A stretch of 63,558 nt of DNA, counting the filler, from Elsinoe ampelina (lineage: Eukaryota), in assembly GCA_010093995.1 (NCBI GenBank). It is 7 parts of 7 records of this genome, joined end to end, with 100 filler letters (N's around TTAATTAATTAA, not from the genome) between each part and the next. Parts side by side here need not be neighbours in the genome. Positions count along the whole stretch, not along the records: positions 10,020 to 19,935 come from ML992575.1; 6 more parts are not named here. The stretch is one strand, 5' to 3'. Positions within the stretch are counted from its first letter, which is position 1, and each line of letters begins with the position of its first letter. Position numbers and translations under genes: made by a program. Positions 9,920-19,781 of this stretch are shown one piece after another. Under the pieces are notes generated by a model. That model was not told the DNA's origin, did not search any database, and worked only from the letters and a program-made list of their open reading frames with translations.

Positions 9920-10019
9920 NNNNNNNNNNNNNNNNNNNNNNNNNNNNNNNNNNNNNNNNNNNNTTAATTAATTAANNNNNNNNNNNNNNNNNNNNNNNNN
10001 NNNNNNNNNNNNNNNNNNN
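9920..10019. other. Artificial contig linker N44-TTAATTAATTAA-N44
   Basis: Identical 100-nt spacer carrying a six-frame-stop 12-mer. Confidence 0.98.
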
Positions 10020-10483
10020 AATAAGTGTTCTAGCTATTAAGGTGTTAGTATCTATAGTTATTTATCTCCTTATTAATACCTAAATCCTATAGTTATAGTT
10101 AAGGCAGTTCTTAATAGATTCTAATACTTAAAAAGCGAGATAGTAGAGAATTAACTAATAAATAGAGTAGGAAAGCAACTAAGTAATATACTTATATAGG
10201 GGTAGTTATACTAGGCTTATAACTGTTAACTTGTGTAGGGGAGGAAAAAGGATTAATTACTACCTAATCTACTAAACTAAGGTAGATTATAACTACATAA
10301 ATACTTAACCTAATAAACTAAGAGATAGATAAATTAATAGAACTCCTAAGTAACAACAGATTAAGACAATAACTATCTAATTTAATTATGAATTAGTGGA
10401 GTAGTAGATAAGTATTCAGTTCCACTAGGGGATAAACTGAATCAGGGTCCTTCTTAGCGCTCTAGCTTATACCTCGGTTGACA
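10020..10483 (-). mobile_element. 5' end of a RIP-mutated Ty1/Copia retrotransposon (5' LTR 10224-10483, PBS-like site 10213-10223)
   Basis: 260-bp TGTCAAC...GTTAACA segment matches the LTR at 30261-30519. It is followed on the minus strand by GTTATAAGCCT, a RIP form of the Copia-type PBS GGTTATGAGCCC. Confidence 0.8.
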
Positions 10484-10787
10484 AGAACCTTAATCCACTC
10501 GTACCACGACATCTTCCTGAACCGACTTCCGACTTGGATAGTAATAATTTGTACCGTCCCTGTATCGCAATCATTGATCGAGAAAGTCGGATCTGCGTCG
10601 ACCTTGGTCTTTGACCACGAGATTACCGAGACTAGAGACCTTGTGCAAATCCGTTTCTTTTCGGAACGTCCCTGAGGCGAATGTGACATGGCCATTACAC
10701 ACACAAGTGTAGCAGACGGCTGTCGGAGACGCTGACATGGATGAACTAACTACAGCCGGAAACAAAGAACTCATTAGGATGAGATTG

Positions 10788-10794
10788 TATATAA
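10788..10794 (+). promoter_or_regulatory. Candidate TATA box of the LPMO gene
   Basis: TATATAA about 100 nt upstream of the ATG. Confidence 0.4.
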
Positions 10795-10884
10795 GGCACA
10801 TTCTTTCTTCCTGGGATATGTTTGGAAACTACCAGCAAGCTTATTCCATTTGACCATCAGATATTTGACACCACAAACCCACCA

Positions 10885-11673
10885 ATGAACAGGATGAAGA
10901 ATCTATCGATTTTGGTCAGTCTACTAGCCACCTCGGCGGCTCATACGATCTTCCAGGAGATGTATGTAGATAGTGTCTCTCAGGGCCATCTTTTTGGTAT
11001 TCGGACCGTCCAGTCATCTAATGTGAGAAGACGATCGGCAATCCCCTCCAATCATACTTACCTTTGTCAGCCGCTCAAGAACGTGTCTAGTCCCGACATC
11101 ATCTGCAATGGCGCTGTGAACAATTTCACCCAGAACCCGGCGGCAGACGTCATCACCTTGCCCGCCGGAGCAACCATTACCACAGAATGGCACAACAAAC
11201 TTCTTGGTCTCGACCCTAGCAACCCAGATGATCCTATCGCAAAGACCCATTTGGGTCCGATCCAGACTTACATGGCGCCGATTGGTGACATCTACGATAC
11301 CGACGTCGAGAGCCTGGAGTGGTTCAAGATCTACCAGGACGGCGTGACCTTGAACAATACGTGGGCCACTCAGAAGATGATGACCGCGGCTGGCAAAGTC
11401 ACCCACGCCATCCCAAGCTGCATCCCCTCGGGCACATATTTGCTGAAGGCGGAGATTGTAGCCTTGCATGCTGTTGGTGATACCGGGAAGAATGTCGAGA
11501 TCTTCACCGAGTGTGCTCAGGTCAATATCACTGATGGTGGAAATGCTGCGCTACCTGGTTTCAAGTTCCAGGAAGGATATACGCCAAGTACGCCTGGACT
11601 GGTGTTCAACGTCTATACCTCGCCCCCGAACCTCGACTATCCATTTCCGGGGCCAGAAGTCTTCACCTGTTAG
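10885..11673 (+). CDS. Secreted AA9 (GH61) lytic polysaccharide monooxygenase with an atypical copper-site motif
   Basis: Signal peptide ending ATSAA, mature N-terminal His (HTIFQ). Motifs IICNG, TEWH, HLGPIQTYMA, WFKI, IPSCIPSGTYLLKAEIVALH, ECAQV, YPFPGP. 48-nt intron 11023-11070. Start could also be 10894. Confidence 0.92.
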   Translation: MNRMKNLSILVSLLATSAAHTIFQEMYVDSVSQGHLFGIRTVQSSNVRRRSAIPSNHTYLCQPLKNVSSPDIICNGAVNNFTQNPAADVITLPAGATITTEWHNKLLGLDPSNPDDPIAKTHLGPIQTYMAPIGDIYDTDVESLEWFKIYQDGVTLNNTWATQKMMTAAGKVTHAIPSCIPSGTYLLKAEIVALHAVGDTGKNVEIFTECAQVNITDGGNAALPGFKFQEGYTPSTPGLVFNVYTSPPNLDYPFPGPEVFTC

Positions 11674-12414
11674 AGTTGTAGGATAGTGCTTGCAAAGACT
11701 GGGCGGGATCAGATGTGAGGAACCAGGAGGATAAGACGGTTTGATATATGTTGGAGCAATGGCAAATCGACTTTGCGACCATTACTCGTGTCCAAGCCTA
11801 ATCAGACGAGCTTTGGTGCCCTCTGTATCGTAATATGATCTTGAAGATGGTAAATCAGAAGATGAACAAGATAGGAAAACGTAATGTCGGTCGGAAAATG
11901 CAGACAAGAAGAGTAGGAGAGCAGAGAGGACCCGTAACAGAAAAGAAGACATCCAATGTTTCCGGCAGCTCGGTTCCAGCCGCAGAGATTGCGGAGCGGA
12001 CCGCTTGTGGAGATTTGTTGTGGACCAATGACGTCCGCACGCGATTCGGCGACTGGCCAAGAGACCAAGACAGATAGACACGACTGCCAGCCCTGCACGA
12101 CATGGCATTGCGGCCTGCGCGTGGGATGCGGACAGAGACAATCCTCCAGATGACCAGATCCAAATAGCTAGTGGCCCGTACGACGACCCGCTGAGACAGA
12201 CACTTCCTACACGCCAAAAGGACCCCCACATGTTCCCACCTCAACATCCGGCACCGTGGCCAGCTCTTCCAGCATCCTCCCTGTGCATAATTCTAATAAC
12301 GCCTTTGAGCTAGTAGAGCTTCCGCCTCCAGCACTACGAGACCGACAGTCACGCCAGTCGTACCGGAATCAGAAAAGGCACGAGAAGCTTTTGGAGCTTC
12401 TGCCTGTCGTCGAC

Positions 12415-15022
12415 ATGAAATTTTCACATAGCATACAATTCAATGCGGTACCGGATTGGAGCAGCCACTACATCGCATACAGTAACCTGAAGAAGTTGAT
12501 ATATCAGTTGGAGAAGCAGGTACACCGAGGGAAACCCGGCGGCGACGATGCCGAATCTTCTCCTCTCCTTAATGGGAACTCGGAAGACCCTGACAAGGTC
12601 TTTTTGCGGTCGCTGGACAATGAGTTGGAGAAGATTACCAAATTCTTCAAATCGAAAGAGACCGAGATCAATTCCGAAGTAGAGGGCCTTCTCCAAGACG
12701 AGGAGGACTTCAATCACGAGCATGAAGGATTTGAAGGCACAGATGCAGCAGCGGCGCGGCGACCGAGTCTGTTCCAGAGAGCACGACAGGGCAGCATGTT
12801 CAAAAGCTTCACAGGCAACCAGCGGCGGAGAGGTAGCACCTTCGGCAGTCGGGAAAGAGAAGGTATACCCGAAGAAGATGAGAGTGAAGAGGAGGATATG
12901 AATGAGCGAACTCAGCTGCGGAAAACACGATCTAGGGACGAGGACATGAGCGCGAGCGGCAATCTGAGTGACTTTGGTCGAGCCTCGACAGAGATGCTCA
13001 GGCGCAAATCGAGCATGCACGATGCAGAGGATCAAGCCTTGTCGTTATTATACGATGAGGGCATCACCCTCAAGAAACGAACCATCAGTCTCTATACCAG
13101 TCTCTGTGAGCTGCGGTCCTTCATACAGCTCAATAAGACTGGTTTCAACAAGGTTCTGAAGAAGTACGACAAGACGCTTGACCGAAACCTGAAGAGCACG
13201 TACATGAAGAAGCAGGTCGAGCCAGCGTACCCATTCCTGGAGTCGTCGACGGGCAAAATCAATGAGAACATTGCCAAAATGGAGAGAGCGTATGCCGACG
13301 TGGTAACAAAAGGAGACGTGGAAAAGGCTCGTCAGGAACTGAGATTGCATCTGCGAGAGCATGTCGTGTGGGAGCGAAACACAGTCTGGCGAGAAATGAT
13401 CGGCATTGAGCGTAAAGCACAAGCTGCGAATCTCGGAATACGACAGACCATGCTTGGTCACGACACGGATCCTCGAAAGGCAAGACTGCAGGGTGACGAT
13501 CAAGAGGTTGCAACTAAGGAGGTCGAAACTCCAATTGGACGTTATCGATGCCCTCGATTCCTGCTCAGCTCGACTTTCTACACTCTCATGATCATCATTG
13601 CCATCTTCTTCGTCCTACTCCTGGTACCGATCATGAAGAAACCCGAACAGCAAAATTGCTTGGCTTTGGTCATCTTTGTTTCATTACTATGGGCCACCGA
13701 GGCGATTCCGCTGTTCGTCACTTCGTTACTGGTGCCCTTCCTGGTGGTGGTTCTCAGAGTTGCCAGGTCCGACGATAAGCCACATCACAGGTTAGAGTCG
13801 AAGCCGGCAGCGACATATGTCTTTGCTGCCATGTGGACTCCAGTTATCATGCTCCTCCTTGGTGGCTTCACAATCGCAGCGGCCCTCTCCAAGTACAACA
13901 TCGCCAAGATGATGGCAACTTTTGTGCTGAGCAAGGCCGGTACCAAGCCGCGGACTGTACTCCTCACATCCATGTTTGTAGCCATGTTCGCCAGTATGTG
14001 GATCAGCAATGTTGCAGCTCCAGTACTGTGCTTTTCCATTATCCAGCCAATTCTACGGAACCTCCCATCGGACAGTAACATGTCCAAGGCACTTCTTCTC
14101 GGCATCGCTCTGGCATCAAATATGGGTGGTGCTGCCTCGCCGATCGCCTCGCCTCAGAACCTCATTGCTCTGCAAAACATGAATCCACAGCCAGGCTGGG
14201 GCGTGTGGTTCTTCATCGCTTTACCAGTCTGCATCATCTCGATTGTCTTGATCTGGATCCTGCTCCTCGTCACCTTCCGACCGGATCGCAACACGACCAT
14301 TGTTCCCATCAGACCCATGAAGGATAAGTTTACTGGTATCCAGTGGTTCATCAGCATTGTCACGCTTCTCACCATCCTGCTCTGGTGTGTGTCACATCAG
14401 CTGCAACCAATCTTTGGCGACATGGGTGTCATCGCCATTATTCCGATCGGTCTCTTCTTTGGTACTGGCATCCTCACCAAGGAAGACTTTAACAACTTTC
14501 TGTGGACCATCATCATCTTGGCCGCAGGTGGTCTTGCTCTTGGCAAGGCCGTGGCCTCTTCCGGCCTGCTTCACACCATTGCAGGCGCCATCACCGAACA
14601 AGTACAGCACCTGAGCCTGTATTCTGTCCTCTTGGTGTTCACCGCATTGATCATGGTGGTGGCGACTTTCATCTCGCACACTGTTGCGGCACTGATCGTG
14701 CTACCTTTGGTTCAGCAAGTTGGTCAAGGCATGGCCGAACCGCATCCCAATCTTCTGGTCATGGGCAGTGTGCTCATGGCTTCGGCTGCAATGGGTCTCC
14801 CAACGAGTGGCTTCCCTAACATGAGTATGTCCCAATCCATACGCTCAATTGTATATCACCATCTAACATTTCACAGCGGCGATCATGATGGAAGATCCCC
14901 AGACTGGTCAACGATATCTGAAGGTGCGGCATTTCCTCACAAGAGGTGTACCAAGCTCGCTCATGGCGTTTGTCGTAATTGTTACCATCGGATATGGATT
15001 AATGCTAGCGGTCGGGTTTTAG
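12415..15022 (+). CDS. PHO91: SPX-domain low-affinity phosphate transporter (Pho87/Pho90/Pho91 family)
   Basis: MKFSHSIQFNAVPDWSSHYIAYSNLKK and LNKTGFNKVLKKYDK SPX motifs, followed by an SLC13-type multi-TM domain. Intron 14825-14876 restores SGFPNMTAIMMED; stop TAG 15020-15022. Confidence 0.92.
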
Positions 15023-15297
15023 ATAGACATTATCGAGTACTCAAGCTCACTATGGATTGAGAGCGCGATGAGTTTGCAATGAGCATCAGACAAAGCAGTT
15101 TACCACAGCCCGTGAAACAATACCGATCATTTTGCAAATTTACCTGCCACAGATGACATTGGTGCCAATTACATTTCCGTTCATAAGGTACATCACTTCG
15201 CCCGATTGAATACTATGCTATGCCCCAGTCCGATTCTGACTCCCGATGTAAGATGCCCAGTACCCGTGCCTGAGCATTCCGAGGTCGAGCATCATCC

Positions 15298-17946
15298 TTA
15301 TGCGGTCCCGACCAAAGTCCCGCCACCAACTCGCATGCCAACAAATCCCTTTCTTTGCCTTCCAGTCCTGCCTCGTCCCAGCCAGTTGTGTTTCAATACA
15401 CCAGTCAAGCGCTCTAATACGCCTTGACCCTGGTCACCTGTCTGCACGCCGGCCAGAATACTAACGCACTGGAGCATCCTGGCTACCGTCTCGGTCACCT
15501 GAGCACTCGAGACTTGCATTCCACCCGTCAGCGTTATGGTCGATGTAGATGTGAGCAGTGACGCCGTGGTCGGCTCCGGTACGGATATGGCCGAACGAGA
15601 TCGTGAATGGCCCGTTCCGATCTGACCAGACGAGGAAGGTGTCGAAGTTCCTGGAGTTGACGTCGCTTGTGGTGGCGGATGAAGCGGAGATGGTAGATGA
15701 GGAAGAGAAGTGCCGAAGCTACCTGCTGAGGTATTTGACGTGGCTCGAGAGCGATTGGAGCTAAAGACACCTGACTGAGATGGTGATGAGTTTGCGGCTG
15801 CGTCGAGCAAGGTGGATGTCTGAGACGAGTAGGAACTGAGGCGAGGCGATAGAGAGCCTGCCGAGGTAGAAGGGCGCTCGGCGCCTGGTGCAGTTGGGTT
15901 AGATCCACCGCGAGATCGAGAGGCGATGGAGTCTGAGGGCCCCGCATTGATACTATCCAAGCTGAGGCGAGAGAAGATCATGAGTAAGGCATCTGCGCGA
16001 GGTAGAAGTACAGTGTCCCGGAAGGAGATAAGTGTCATTCGTCGTACGTCGAGCTCTTCTCCCAGAGAGGGCAAAGCCTTTGCATTAGCTCCCCCTGCCG
16101 AGCCCGGTCGTTCTTCTGATCGAAAAGTGTCGGGCATTGCACCCCAGAATTCTGCTGCTTCACGGGTGGTCATGATAAGACCATGACCACGGAATTCCTG
16201 GTCAAGTGGGAGGAAGACAGCTTGAATAAAGGGCAGGACCACGCAATAAATCATCTGCCACATCTCCGCGAGATTAGGGACGAGCCGTTCGTCAGGCAAG
16301 TTGCGGAGTGTCTGCGCTAGAGATGCGAAGCCTGTCTCGAGGAACTCCCGAAGATCTTCGACGAGGACATGTGGTGCCCGCTTTTGAACACATCGTCTGA
16401 TATGAACGGAGACGAGGAGATTGAAGTCTTCGACTGGAGTACGAATGTCCTCACCCTCGAAAATATTCAAGAGTCGTGCTTTGAGCAATGGCCAAGCGTC
16501 GTCAGGGGTGATGCCTGACAAACCCATGTTGTTGCCGAGATTGTTGAAGGCCGCCGCCGATGCTGTAGGATTTTGGTCAAAGGAAAATACACTTGCTGAT
16601 GTGCCTGAAGGAGGACCGAGGAATGAGAATGTCTCCCCAAGACTGCTCGGGCCAGAGAATTCTGACCGGTAGTCTGTATTGACGTTCATGCTTGAGCCCG
16701 CCATAGACATGCCTGATGATGCTGCCGCCTTTTCCTCCTTCCGCTTGTCCCGAAGACCTCTGCCACCGTGTCGAAGGTCGAGACCGGTGACAGATTTTGA
16801 GAAGGCAGAATTGGCCCCTGGAGATTGCGGAGTGAAAGAGTATAGTGAGGACGGCGCTGATGGATCAACTGCTTGTGAATTTGAAGAGGCTGATGAGAGC
16901 GGTAAGAATTTCTCGCCATGCTTGTGCTTTTGACGGGATAGGAAATGCGGCCGGTGTTTCTCCTTATCCAGATTGACTGCGGTGGAGGACGGGTTGGGAA
17001 CAAGCGTGGAAGTAGAGTTGTTGCTTGTGGTTGTTGAGTAGATGGATGCGCTACTTGACATGGTGCTGTCCAGAAGGCTGGTTGTGGATGTGCTTGCAAT
17101 GCCGGGTGGGAAACCGCGCTTGTTCGGGGAGGGGAGACTGGGAAGCTTCTTGTCGAGGTCTTTGTCTTTGTTGATGCCGATGGTCTTGGGTTTAGAGAAG
17201 AGCTTCATCTTCGACTTCTCCTTGCCTTTACCTTCCTTCTCCGGCACGAGCGGTGGCACGGGAGGGAGAAGTGAGTCGTCCATTGATGTCGTGCTGGCGT
17301 TGGGGATCGGACTCTTGGGATAGGCAACATTGGCGGCCGTCGTGGCGGTAAGCTTGCCATTCTCAGGGTTGCTCGGATAGTCGTGAGATCTTTGGTGATA
17401 TGGCGGGCTGGTGGCGGTCGGTGATGGAGCTCTTCGAGGTGGAGCGGTGCTCGTGTTGAGAGGAGCCAGCCCTGGCATGGACCGTTTACGGTCGTTCATG
17501 GACAGAGAAGCCGGGCCAAGATGGTTCATGGCTGTTGCAGCGGCAATGGCGGAAGCTGACAGGGTCGAAGCTGATGCTGTGGGTAATGATGGCTCGAAGA
17601 AGCCTTGGGAGTGTTGTCGCGGTCGATGTCCAATAGCGGCACCGCTACTCGCGGCGTGAGGTCGTTGGCCCCTCATCTGGTCCTCAATTGACACTCGCGG
17701 TGCAGGTCTCGAGAAGTTTGTCAGATTCGAGGATGATGCTGGTGCCGTGGCACCGCCGGCGGTCGATGGTCTTGGTGGCACCTGACTTGGATGAGCTGTC
17801 CGTTTGACAGCAGTCTGAGCCGCATGCTGAGAGTCATTGGACGAGAGGGAGGAAGCACTTCTGTGCGACGCTGTAGACTGTGATCGTTCCTGCGATGGTC
17901 GTGGCGGCGGGCGTAGGCCAGTCACGACATGGTTGGTGGGGTTCAT
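15298..17946 (-). CDS. HbrB-domain (Bit61/Protor-like, TORC2-associated) protein
   Basis: Long Ser/Pro-rich ORF with conserved core DDAWPLLKARLLNIFEGED...W...VLPFIQAVFLPLD...LISFRDTV...RMLQCVSILA. First ATG at 17946. Confidence 0.8.
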   Translation of the reverse strand: MNPTNHVVTGLRPPPRPSQERSQSTASHRSASSLSSNDSQHAAQTAVKRTAHPSQVPPRPSTAGGATAPASSSNLTNFSRPAPRVSIEDQMRGQRPHAASSGAAIGHRPRQHSQGFFEPSLPTASASTLSASAIAAATAMNHLGPASLSMNDRKRSMPGLAPLNTSTAPPRRAPSPTATSPPYHQRSHDYPSNPENGKLTATTAANVAYPKSPIPNASTTSMDDSLLPPVPPLVPEKEGKGKEKSKMKLFSKPKTIGINKDKDLDKKLPSLPSPNKRGFPPGIASTSTTSLLDSTMSSSASIYSTTTSNNSTSTLVPNPSSTAVNLDKEKHRPHFLSRQKHKHGEKFLPLSSASSNSQAVDPSAPSSLYSFTPQSPGANSAFSKSVTGLDLRHGGRGLRDKRKEEKAAASSGMSMAGSSMNVNTDYRSEFSGPSSLGETFSFLGPPSGTSASVFSFDQNPTASAAAFNNLGNNMGLSGITPDDAWPLLKARLLNIFEGEDIRTPVEDFNLLVSVHIRRCVQKRAPHVLVEDLREFLETGFASLAQTLRNLPDERLVPNLAEMWQMIYCVVLPFIQAVFLPLDQEFRGHGLIMTTREAAEFWGAMPDTFRSEERPGSAGGANAKALPSLGEELDVRRMTLISFRDTVLLPRADALLMIFSRLSLDSINAGPSDSIASRSRGGSNPTAPGAERPSTSAGSLSPRLSSYSSQTSTLLDAAANSSPSQSGVFSSNRSRATSNTSAGSFGTSLPHLPSPLHPPPQATSTPGTSTPSSSGQIGTGHSRSRSAISVPEPTTASLLTSTSTITLTGGMQVSSAQVTETVARMLQCVSILAGVQTGDQGQGVLERLTGVLKHNWLGRGRTGRQRKGFVGMRVGGGTLVGTA

Positions 17947-18425
17947 CTGAGGATCGTATGGTAGCCCCAACTGGGCCGTAAAATAGCCCGGCGGCCCAAG
18001 CGTTCAATTATCTACATGAATCACCATGCCCAGGTCGTTCAGAATTGCGGTTGGCGATGATCTGTCGCTGGAAAGTGGGTGGATGTTGGGGATGTCTCTA
18101 CCAAAGGACCCGGGGGATGTGAAATTCAGCCGCATCTCTCTTGAATGTCGGCGAGTCGGCGCTTGGTCTTCTCCGGCCCGACATGTGCCAAGATATCGAT
18201 GTCATTTTCGGATTTTTGGTGAAGCGCAAGATTCAAAGAAATCACCGTCAGCGATCATCTCGATCAAAGCATCCGCGTCACTCTCGCTCAGCCTCTCATT
18301 GTTGTTACTGTCTCTTGATTTCCGAGGGTAGTTGATATCCGAAACACAGCAGAACTCCGCAAGTCAAGCCAAGCTGAAACCCTCGACTCGTCCAGTCGCC
18401 GACAAGTCCTGAAGTCCTGCCATTC

Positions 18426-19781
18426 ATGGTATTTGCCCGTGTGGCAGATTACCTGGGTGGTACAGATCAATCTCAATCCCAATCACATAGCCTCTCTCTC
18501 GCCGAAGATGGCTCGATGCAATCACACGACCAGTCCAGCACTTCAAGATGGAAGGAAGAAAGTGTTTCCGCGGATATTGGGGATGAGATCGAGGAGCCCA
18601 GGCCACCTTTTATCCATGTGAGCGAGGGAAACATATGCTTGAGATCTCTCTGACATTTCGCAGGCAATGATAGCGGGAGGGACAGGTGGGATGATGGGAG
18701 ACATGCTCATGCATTCTCTCGATACTGTCAAAACCAGGCAGCAGGGTGACCCGCATATGCCACCAAAGTACACGAGCATGACGAATACATACACAACGAT
18801 CTGGCGACAAGAGGGTATACGGCGAGGGTTGTACGCGGGAGTTACACCCGCATTCCTGGGTTCTTGGTTCGGCACGGTCATTTTCTTTGGCAGCTATGAG
18901 TATGGAAAGCGCTTCCTGATAAATCACGGCGTTGCACCATCTGTATCATATTTCGCGGCTGGTATTGGCAGAATCTATCGCCGTACTACGCTCTGCTAAC
19001 AAATTCAGGCTGGTTCGCCGACTTGGCCGCATCTCCTCTCTATGTGCCGAGCGAGGTTCTGAAGACTCGACTACAACTTCAGGGCCGACACAATAACCCT
19101 CATTTCAACAGCGGATACAACTATAAATCGACATGGGACGCATTGAAGACTATCGTTAGAAAAGAAGGAGCAGCAGAATTGTTCTCGGGATACAAAGCCA
19201 CCCTCGCTCGCGATCTTCCCTTTTCGGCGATTCAATTTGCCGTGTACGAGCAAGAGCAGAAGCTGGCAAAAGCATGGTGTGGGCGAAAGGACATTGGTCT
19301 ACCTTTGGAGATCTTCACCGGTGCCAGTGCTGGAGGGTTAGCAGGTGTATTGACCTGTCCATTGGATGTGGTGAAGACGCGAATACAGACGCAGTTGGAC
19401 CCTGCGTTGACCGCGACCAAAAAGTCTTCGAAGCCCCTTAACACGGCCTCAATCCGTCATTCTCATCCTGCAGACGCCCCACTACGGCCTCACTCGAGTG
19501 GCCAGATGATGGCAGAGACAATCAAAAGCACCGCACAGCGACACATCTCAACCGGTGGGCCTTCTACCAGTCTTCGAAATCACGGCCAGATCACTCTGGA
19601 CACTGAGTCAGTCTTGGCCGGCTTGAGAATCATCTACAAAGCAGAAGGTTTTGCTGGACTGCTGCGCGGAGTCGGGCCCAGGGGTGTGTGGACCAGCATA
19701 CAGAGTGGTACCGTGTTGGTCATGTATCAGCAATTCCTCAAGCTATTTGAAGCGTACCCGCTGGTCAATGACGATGCTTAG
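18426..19781 (+). CDS. Mitochondrial carrier family protein (YMR166C/Mme1-like), 3 exons
   Basis: Three carrier signatures (HSLDTVKTRQQ, PSEVLKTRLQ, PLDVVKTRIQ). Introns 18618-18663 and 18962-19008. Start uncertain (18426 or 18516). Divergent from the HbrB gene. Confidence 0.88.

Follow-up and report, generated by a model that had tools for sequence, protein, structure and literature searches.

The canonical copper site of AA9 LPMOs carries the trio His-Gln-Tyr, namely a second-sphere His, Gln and an axial Tyr. The effects of exchanges at these places are given here as described in the accessible portions of the papers cited. In NcAA9C, the change of Gln to Glu lowers the potential, raises oxidase activity 5-fold in the presence of Tyr and destabilises the enzyme (PMC10472438). 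In MtPMO9E, Tyr168Phe halves the O2 reactions and leaves the H2O2 reaction and the geometry almost unchanged (PMC11725913, PMC13462859). The effect of Gln or Glu on productive turnover varies with the protein context (PMC12186267). Glu-Phe has been linked to low oxidase activity (PMC10472438, PMC11137697). Cellulose-active AA10s with Glu-x-Phe have Arg at the place of the second-sphere His, and many AA10s are without that His (PMC11137697, PMC10472438). ScAA10C belongs to this Arg-Glu-Phe type, in which Glu lies at the AA9 backbone position (PMC10472438, PMC11137697), and its Glu-Phe supports cellulose oxidation (PMC11137697). In AA10s, hole relay, which in AA9s falls to Tyr, is taken over by a Trp (PMC11087555). 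AA11 LPMOs such as AfAA11B (Glu-x-Tyr) are fungal and have a second-sphere Glu, but they keep the axial Tyr, have Asn for the third His and show high oxidase activity (PMC12186267).

In the literature searched, as far as it was accessible, the trio His-Glu-Phe occurs only as an engineered AA10 mutant of low activity, MaAA10B 'HEF' (Q219E/Y221F), in which oxidase activity and activity on PASC and chitin are lower (PMC11137697). Gln-to-Glu in MaAA10B raised chitin activity, only with Tyr present. A natural axial-Phe AA9 has been in print since 2026 (PMC13462859). The enzyme, PdPMO9A from the plant-root pathogen Pyrenochaeta sp., is of the His-Gln-Phe type and binds copper 1:1. Its oxidase rate is similar to that of MtPMO9E, and it left all 16 substrates of the panel unoxidised, whether supplied with O2 or with H2O2 (PMC13462859). 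Its authors propose H2O2-rich niches for axial-Phe enzymes (PMC13462859). A chitin-active LPMO of Podosphaera was set aside as a precedent, since it is not an AA9 (PMC8035642).

The window, that is, the whole stretch of DNA analysed, comprises 63,558 nucleotides from Elsinoe ampelina and is a chain of contigs with N-TTAATTAATTAA-N spacers at 9920-10019 and five further places. The ORF at 10885-11673 has AA9 (PF03443) as its only Pfam match (E 7.4e-48; 163.6 bits against a curated cut-off of 27.8). The gene and its upstream region are laid out as follows:

10020..10483, no strand assigned: RIP-mutated high-copy repeat, upstream of and outside the gene (repeat search and RIP index)
10566..11888, no strand assigned: span of the X3 contig across the gene (contig alignment)
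10885..10941, + strand: predicted signal peptide of 19 residues, ending S-A-A ahead of His1 (from the sequence; putative cleavage)
10885..11022, + strand: coding exon 1
11023..11070, + strand: intron of 48 nt, GT..AG, in frame and stop-free, in the L2 loop
11071..11673, + strand: coding exon 2, including the stop codon

An earlier note on this DNA had missed the in-frame intron; read unspliced, the ORF would give 262 residues. The spliced product has 246 residues, 227 of them in the mature single-domain AA9, and removal of the intron restores the usual spacing ahead of the first cysteine. The gene is transcribed and spliced, since one X4 contig (depth 6.3) runs across the joint 11022>11071, with 30 letters on its shorter side; none of the runs is recorded as RNA, their RNA label being a guess, and the X3 and X4 contigs give no strand. 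One contig of run X6 starts at 11071, where exon 2 begins. The X3 contig keeps the intron, which could reflect chance or unspliced RNA; if it were translated, the L2 loop would be 16 residues longer next to Asn27 and would gain a further Cys. The Ala-His at the end of the signal peptide falls at the same alignment position in orthologues and relatives, and the protein is probably secreted. An alternative start codon is the ATG at 10894. The spliced product is identical to the public record P0122, named Elsinoe ampelina, which was left uncounted as independent support because it is possibly the window's own annotation.

The gene sits near the start of its contig (C75), so whatever lies left of 9920 is not necessarily close to it in the genome. 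On C75 it is followed by housekeeping genes, namely an SPX-domain transporter (12256-15060), an HbrB-like protein (15298-17970) and a mitochondrial carrier (19023-19781), and no carbohydrate-enzyme cluster was seen among ORFs of at least 200 residues. The upstream repeat matches at 40 of 40 scored places, 40 of 199 candidates having been scored, and it could affect expression of the gene. Its TGACA end lies 82 bases before 10566, the position at which the X3 and X4 contigs both start; this common start is a weak hint of a transcript end. A TATA-like TATATAAG is found downstream of 10566, at 10788-10795.

Sequencing error and RIP were considered as sources of the unusual motif and were rejected. 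Runs X3, X4 and X6 belong to three studies, and each has a contig that spans both codons and shows 0 deviating letters there, so a base-call error is not the source. Four of 12 runs were compared (X2, X3, X4, X6); X2 was left uncounted as possibly the source, and stretches uncovered in the other three were not taken as evidence. The composite RIP index is +1.43 in the repeat and -0.50 and -0.69 in the exons, and the same E-I-F is present in two further species, E. fawcettii and Sphaceloma murrayae. Because other runs and two orthologues have the same motif, it is neither an error nor a product of RIP, and the suggestion that the protein is a natural AA9 variant holds, with conservation in three species. 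The earlier note had also argued that RIP leakage from a nearby LTR does not explain the motif; the absence of a RIP signal in the exons agrees with this, but only the TGACA end of the repeat fits an LTR.

By sequence and fold, the protein belongs to AA9, with the brace residues present. An AlphaFold2 model (pLDDT 76, pTM 0.79; 16-row alignment) retrieves in a structure search only AA9/GH61 matches among those listed down to rank 40. The closest solved relatives are NcLPMO9C (4d7u), NcLPMO9A (5foh) and MtPMO9E (9bjq), which share with it the Pfam family, a TM of 0.79-0.82 (0.82 for NcLPMO9C), the brace, the second-sphere His, the relay and the four cysteines; TM falls to 0.36-0.39 with AA11 and to 0.29-0.32 with AA10. 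These structures are of the C4 type. The residues that define the copper site and the substrate face are the following:

10942..10944, + strand: His1 (CAT), histidine brace; aligns with residue 1 of 4d7u, 5foh and 5tkf
11008..11022, + strand: L2 surface stretch V-Q-S-S-N, residues 23-27; alignment to 4d7u
11188..11190, + strand: Trp67, kept, corresponding to Trp62 of NcLPMO9C and Tyr62 of MtPMO9E, an electron or hole relay; by alignment, with the role as given in the accessible part of PMC11725913
11194..11196, + strand: Asn69, replacing the L3 substrate-face His; aligns with the W-G-H His of NcLPMO9C
11248..11250, + strand: His87, second brace His (HLGP); aligns with the HKGP His of NcLPMO9C
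11467..11469, + strand: His160, second-sphere His, kept; same alignment column as His of ALH in solved AA9s
11470..11496, + strand: rebuilt His160-Glu170 loop, one residue longer than usual, with Asn-Val replacing Gly-Ala; by alignment
11497..11499, + strand: Glu170 (GAG), at the Gln place; Gln in 116/118 other first-search relatives
11503..11505, + strand: Phe172 (TTC), at the axial Tyr place; Tyr in 116/118 other first-search relatives
11614..11616, + strand: Tyr209, kept, an aromatic residue that the C-terminal loop contributes to the substrate face; Tyr in 112/118 relatives

The codons for His1, Glu170 and Phe172 are as first read, and His1, His87 and His160 align with those of solved AA9s, which bears out the claim that the brace and the second-sphere His are intact; one copper would be bound in this brace, judging from the sequence. 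E-I-F falls on the Q-F/L-Y of NcLPMO9C (4d7u) and other solved AA9s. The register is set by the conserved Cys175, with Glu at -5 and Phe at -3, and the model places both residues on one strand; their side chains are predicted, from alignment, to lie at the copper. A register shift that would supply another Tyr or Gln was rejected on the sequence, since Cys175 anchors the strand; between His160 and Cys175 there is no Tyr or Gln. The loop that leads to Glu170 contains Lys167 and no Arg; among the other first-search relatives, the residues before Gln/Glu are Gly in 118/118 and Ala in 117/118.

The canonical trio is therefore represented by His160 alone, with Glu170 and Phe172 in place of Gln and Tyr. 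The earlier note had called the environment AA10-like, and Glu-x-Phe is indeed shared with the ScAA10C type; however, that type has Arg where this protein keeps the AA9 His, and it belongs to another family and fold (TM about 0.3). Because His160 stays, the site is better described as a His-Glu-Phe hybrid. The AA11 pattern of Glu, axial Tyr and no third His is also absent, given Phe172 and His160. LsAA9B (6rs6) has the AA9 fold and an axial Phe (Q-F-F), but Asn occupies the positions of the second brace His and the second-sphere His, hence it has no brace, while both brace His are present here. LsAA9B reportedly has an N-terminal Arg and no copper.

PdPMO9A resembles the window AA9 as a natural, plant-associated AA9 with brace, second-sphere His and axial Phe; as far as the published description allows the comparison, it keeps Gln and has no Trp/Tyr relay, whereas the window AA9 has Glu and Trp67 (PMC13462859). 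The MaAA10B mutant has the same trio (PMC11137697), but it is a bacterial laboratory construct of reduced activity, whereas the trio of the window AA9 is natural and accompanied by a rebuilt loop. Compared with canonical C4-type AA9s, the protein differs in Glu-x-Phe, in a longer His-to-Glu loop without Gly-Ala and in the L3 Asn, which takes a place held by His in 112/118 relatives. In the L2 stretch, the surface Tyr of relatives (position 25, 113/118) is lost, and Asn27 is present as in NcLPMO9C where relatives have Gly (115/118). Asp80 and all four cysteines are kept. Roles of such residues on the C4-type substrate face and in site stabilisation are given in the accessible portions of PMC5094447 and PMC13726380.

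E-x-F is uncommon in AA9, as the earlier note had supposed. In the first search (120 listed matches and the query) it occurs in 3 rows, all from the Elsinoe/Sphaceloma clade. A set of 270 rows was composed of this search, the best 150 of 1970 matches in a 50% representative library and three cluster members; as a biased sample rather than a count of the AA9 family, it contains Q-x-Y in 233 rows, Q-x-F in 14, E-x-Y in 6, E-x-F in 5 and other or gapped motifs in 12. Each substitution singly thus occurs in a few percent of the sampled AA9s. The two E-x-F rows outside the Elsinoe clade are both from Coemansia, and a search directed at that genus (38 matches) brings E-x-F to 21 of 350 rows in the same biased sample, 3 from Elsinoe/Sphaceloma and 18 from Coemansia, of which 7 include His1 and 11 start later. 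The 16 AA9s of the window genome comprise 12 His-Gln-Tyr and one each of Gln-Gln-Tyr, His-Glu-Tyr, His-Glu-Cys and His-Glu-Phe; from these states, Glu by itself is unexceptional and the Glu-Phe pair exceptional. Another of these AA9s, L016:1831-1851 (G000:C18:162380-162841), reads Glu-Phe-Cys, with an axial Cys (TGC) by its Cys anchor, and may be a true variant or a Tyr>Cys change confined to the strain.

The literature search found no natural His-Glu-Phe AA9 and no account of this Elsinoe gene; most subscription journals lay outside its scope, and figures or supplements of mutagenesis papers may tabulate Glu-Phe AA9s. In their accessible portions, two Elsinoe genome papers give AA9 counts only, a paper on Kickxellomycotina notes the presence of AA9 and nothing more, and Elsinoe goes unmentioned in the PdPMO9A supplement. 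The idea of an undescribed subclade stands in part: the clade is small and no description of it was found, but E-x-F recurs in Coemansia, and with PdPMO9A the characterisation of a natural AA9 with axial Phe is already in print (PMC13462859).

The orthologues are P0002 of E. fawcettii (205/227 identical, 90%) and P0003 of Sphaceloma murrayae (173/227, 76%), both with N-V-E-I-F; motif and length are the same in the three species. Of the 220 matches to a profile of the clade, the 120 that were listed include no fourth member, and metagenome contigs gave 7 loci at 28-51% identity and no further clade member. The three proteins form a clade with support of 100/99, on a stem of 0.67-1.45 changes per site with tips of 0-0.34. 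At 36 places where at least 85% of the 118 relatives agree, all three carry the same change; the L2 surface Tyr, the L3 His and the Gly-Ala ahead of Glu are among the places affected, and a few of the changes may be alignment shifts at indels. Their net charge is -11 to -13, compared with -2 for the canonical paralogue, so the window AA9 is more acidic than its own paralogue. S. murrayae and E. fawcettii each have three related paralogues, His-Gln-Tyr (P0011 and P0273, respectively), His-Gln-Phe (P0109 and P0272) and His-Glu-Phe, with identities between the two species of 81.9% for the canonical, 62.8% for the His-Gln-Phe and 77.5% for the His-Glu-Phe copies. In the window genome, the direct canonical paralogue is L008, and no His-Gln-Phe paralogue was found there, the best match being the window AA9 itself at 43%. 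A long stem followed by constraint fits a new function, and the best explanation is that the window AA9 is a duplicated AA9 gene of the Elsinoe/Sphaceloma scab fungi that has probably acquired a new job.

The two Phe clades join at support of 58/92 and 72/91, with a long-branch warning; the AU test rejects neither of the other two arrangements (p 0.14 and 0.57), and the likelihood of one of them is 2.37 higher. Only a shared one-residue insertion and the Phe favour a stepwise path. Given this weak support for sisterhood, the series His-Gln-Tyr > His-Gln-Phe > His-Glu-Phe is a possibility.

The His-Glu-Phe AA9s of Coemansia (Kickxellales; P0319, P0320, P0321, P0331, P0334, P0339 and P0344) resemble the window AA9 in their trio, but they keep Gly-Ala (G-A-E-x-F) and are of separate origin. 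In a tree of 25 chosen rows without the trait columns, they nest among Kickxellales His-Gln-Tyr sequences. A single origin of all His-Glu-Phe AA9s was rejected on the same 25 rows (AU p 3.3e-49). This independent origin suggests that Glu-Phe with His is a workable pairing. The genus also has Q-x-F copies, and several of its His-Glu-Phe AA9s have basic, Lys/Arg-rich C-terminal ends. Kickxellomycotina are described, in the accessible text, as having AA9 and GH5 alone among the main cellulase families.

The window AA9 may differ from canonical enzymes in redox behaviour or substrate. By analogy with the enzymes described above, it would be a peroxygenase of low oxidase activity that is fed with H2O2 and does not have plain cellulose as its target, a reading to which a rough probability of 0.55 can be given. 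Once a priming reduction has given Cu(I), Glu170 and His160 would keep H2O2 in place there. The missing axial Tyr would lower O2 turnover and cancel the oxidase boost of a Glu next to Tyr. The enzyme's own output of H2O2 would then be small, and supply would come from the host oxidative burst or from partner oxidases. In scab lesions, host defence and elsinochrome pigments make reactive oxygen abundant. Trp67 could take the hole-relay role. Going by the surface residues, the substrate may be guessed to be some beta-linked glycan, though not plain crystalline cellulose. Against this reading weigh the dependence of Gln or Glu effects on protein context (PMC12186267), the poor engineered His-Glu-Phe MaAA10B and PdPMO9A, which in the accessible account oxidised 0/16 substrates and has an oxidase rate not lower than that of MtPMO9E.

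The two proteins just named lend weight to the main rival proposal, which is rather unlikely: a redox-active, AA9-like copper protein that cleaves no glycan and makes or consumes H2O2, handles lesion copper or binds a wall polymer uncut. AA16 proteins boost AA9s and offer a precedent. The substrate-face Tyr25 and His69 of relatives are lost, and the engineered His-Glu-Phe AA10 is poorly active (PMC11137697). Tyr209, Asn27, Asp80 and Trp67 are nevertheless kept, matching substrate-face and site-stabilising residues of active C4-type enzymes. In addition, PdPMO9A is without a Trp/Tyr relay where the window AA9 has Trp67, and Glu for Gln retains a group able to position H2O2. The proposal keeps its standing because PdPMO9A, with copper and oxidase activity, cut none of its substrates.

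A bolder extension, with a rather small chance of being right, would make His-Glu-Phe AA9s a functional subtype with at least two origins (in scab fungi and Kickxellales), H2O2-only peroxygenases with a target new for AA9, e.g. chitin or chitosan in the cell wall of the fungus itself. The chitin gain of MaAA10B with Gln-to-Glu, the strongly acidic protein and the restriction of Kickxellomycotina to AA9 and GH5 point in this direction.

The chance is slim that the protein is an ordinary C4-type AA9 acting on cellulose or hemicellulose, with Glu and Phe offsetting each other so that its chemistry and role stay close to those of canonical paralogues. Its nearest solved relatives, the cellulose oxidation by Glu-Phe ScAA10C (PMC11137697) and the barely altered geometry of MtPMO9E Tyr168Phe (PMC11725913) would agree with it; yet the genome already has 12 His-Gln-Tyr AA9s of 16, including the direct paralogue, the long stem and the 36 fixed changes point to a shift rather than drift, and the net charge differs widely. 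That the gene is a duplicate in decay or without function, or that sequencing or RIP produced an artefact, is very improbable and largely refuted: the RIP-mutated repeat 400 bp away, the low depth of X4 and X6, the intron kept in X3 and the failure to retrieve an E. australis copy, though its canonical copy is in the collection, are outweighed by codons identical in three further runs, exons without RIP signal and a motif and length maintained in three species at a conservation near that of the canonical paralogue.

The window AA9 is real, expressed, conserved and rare, a member of the known AA9 family and not a new kind of system. How Gln or Glu and Tyr or Phe tune the copper of LPMOs is an active question, which has been studied with mutants that are mostly crippled. 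The His-Glu-Phe, His-Gln-Phe and His-Gln-Tyr paralogues of S. murrayae and E. fawcettii, together with a second, independent clade, provide a natural series. This series is suited to testing which other changes let Glu-Phe work in an AA9 frame, as well as the H2O2 dependence of axial-Phe enzymes. The finding may also point to a new substrate, or a new role, of AA9s in the scab diseases of grape and citrus.
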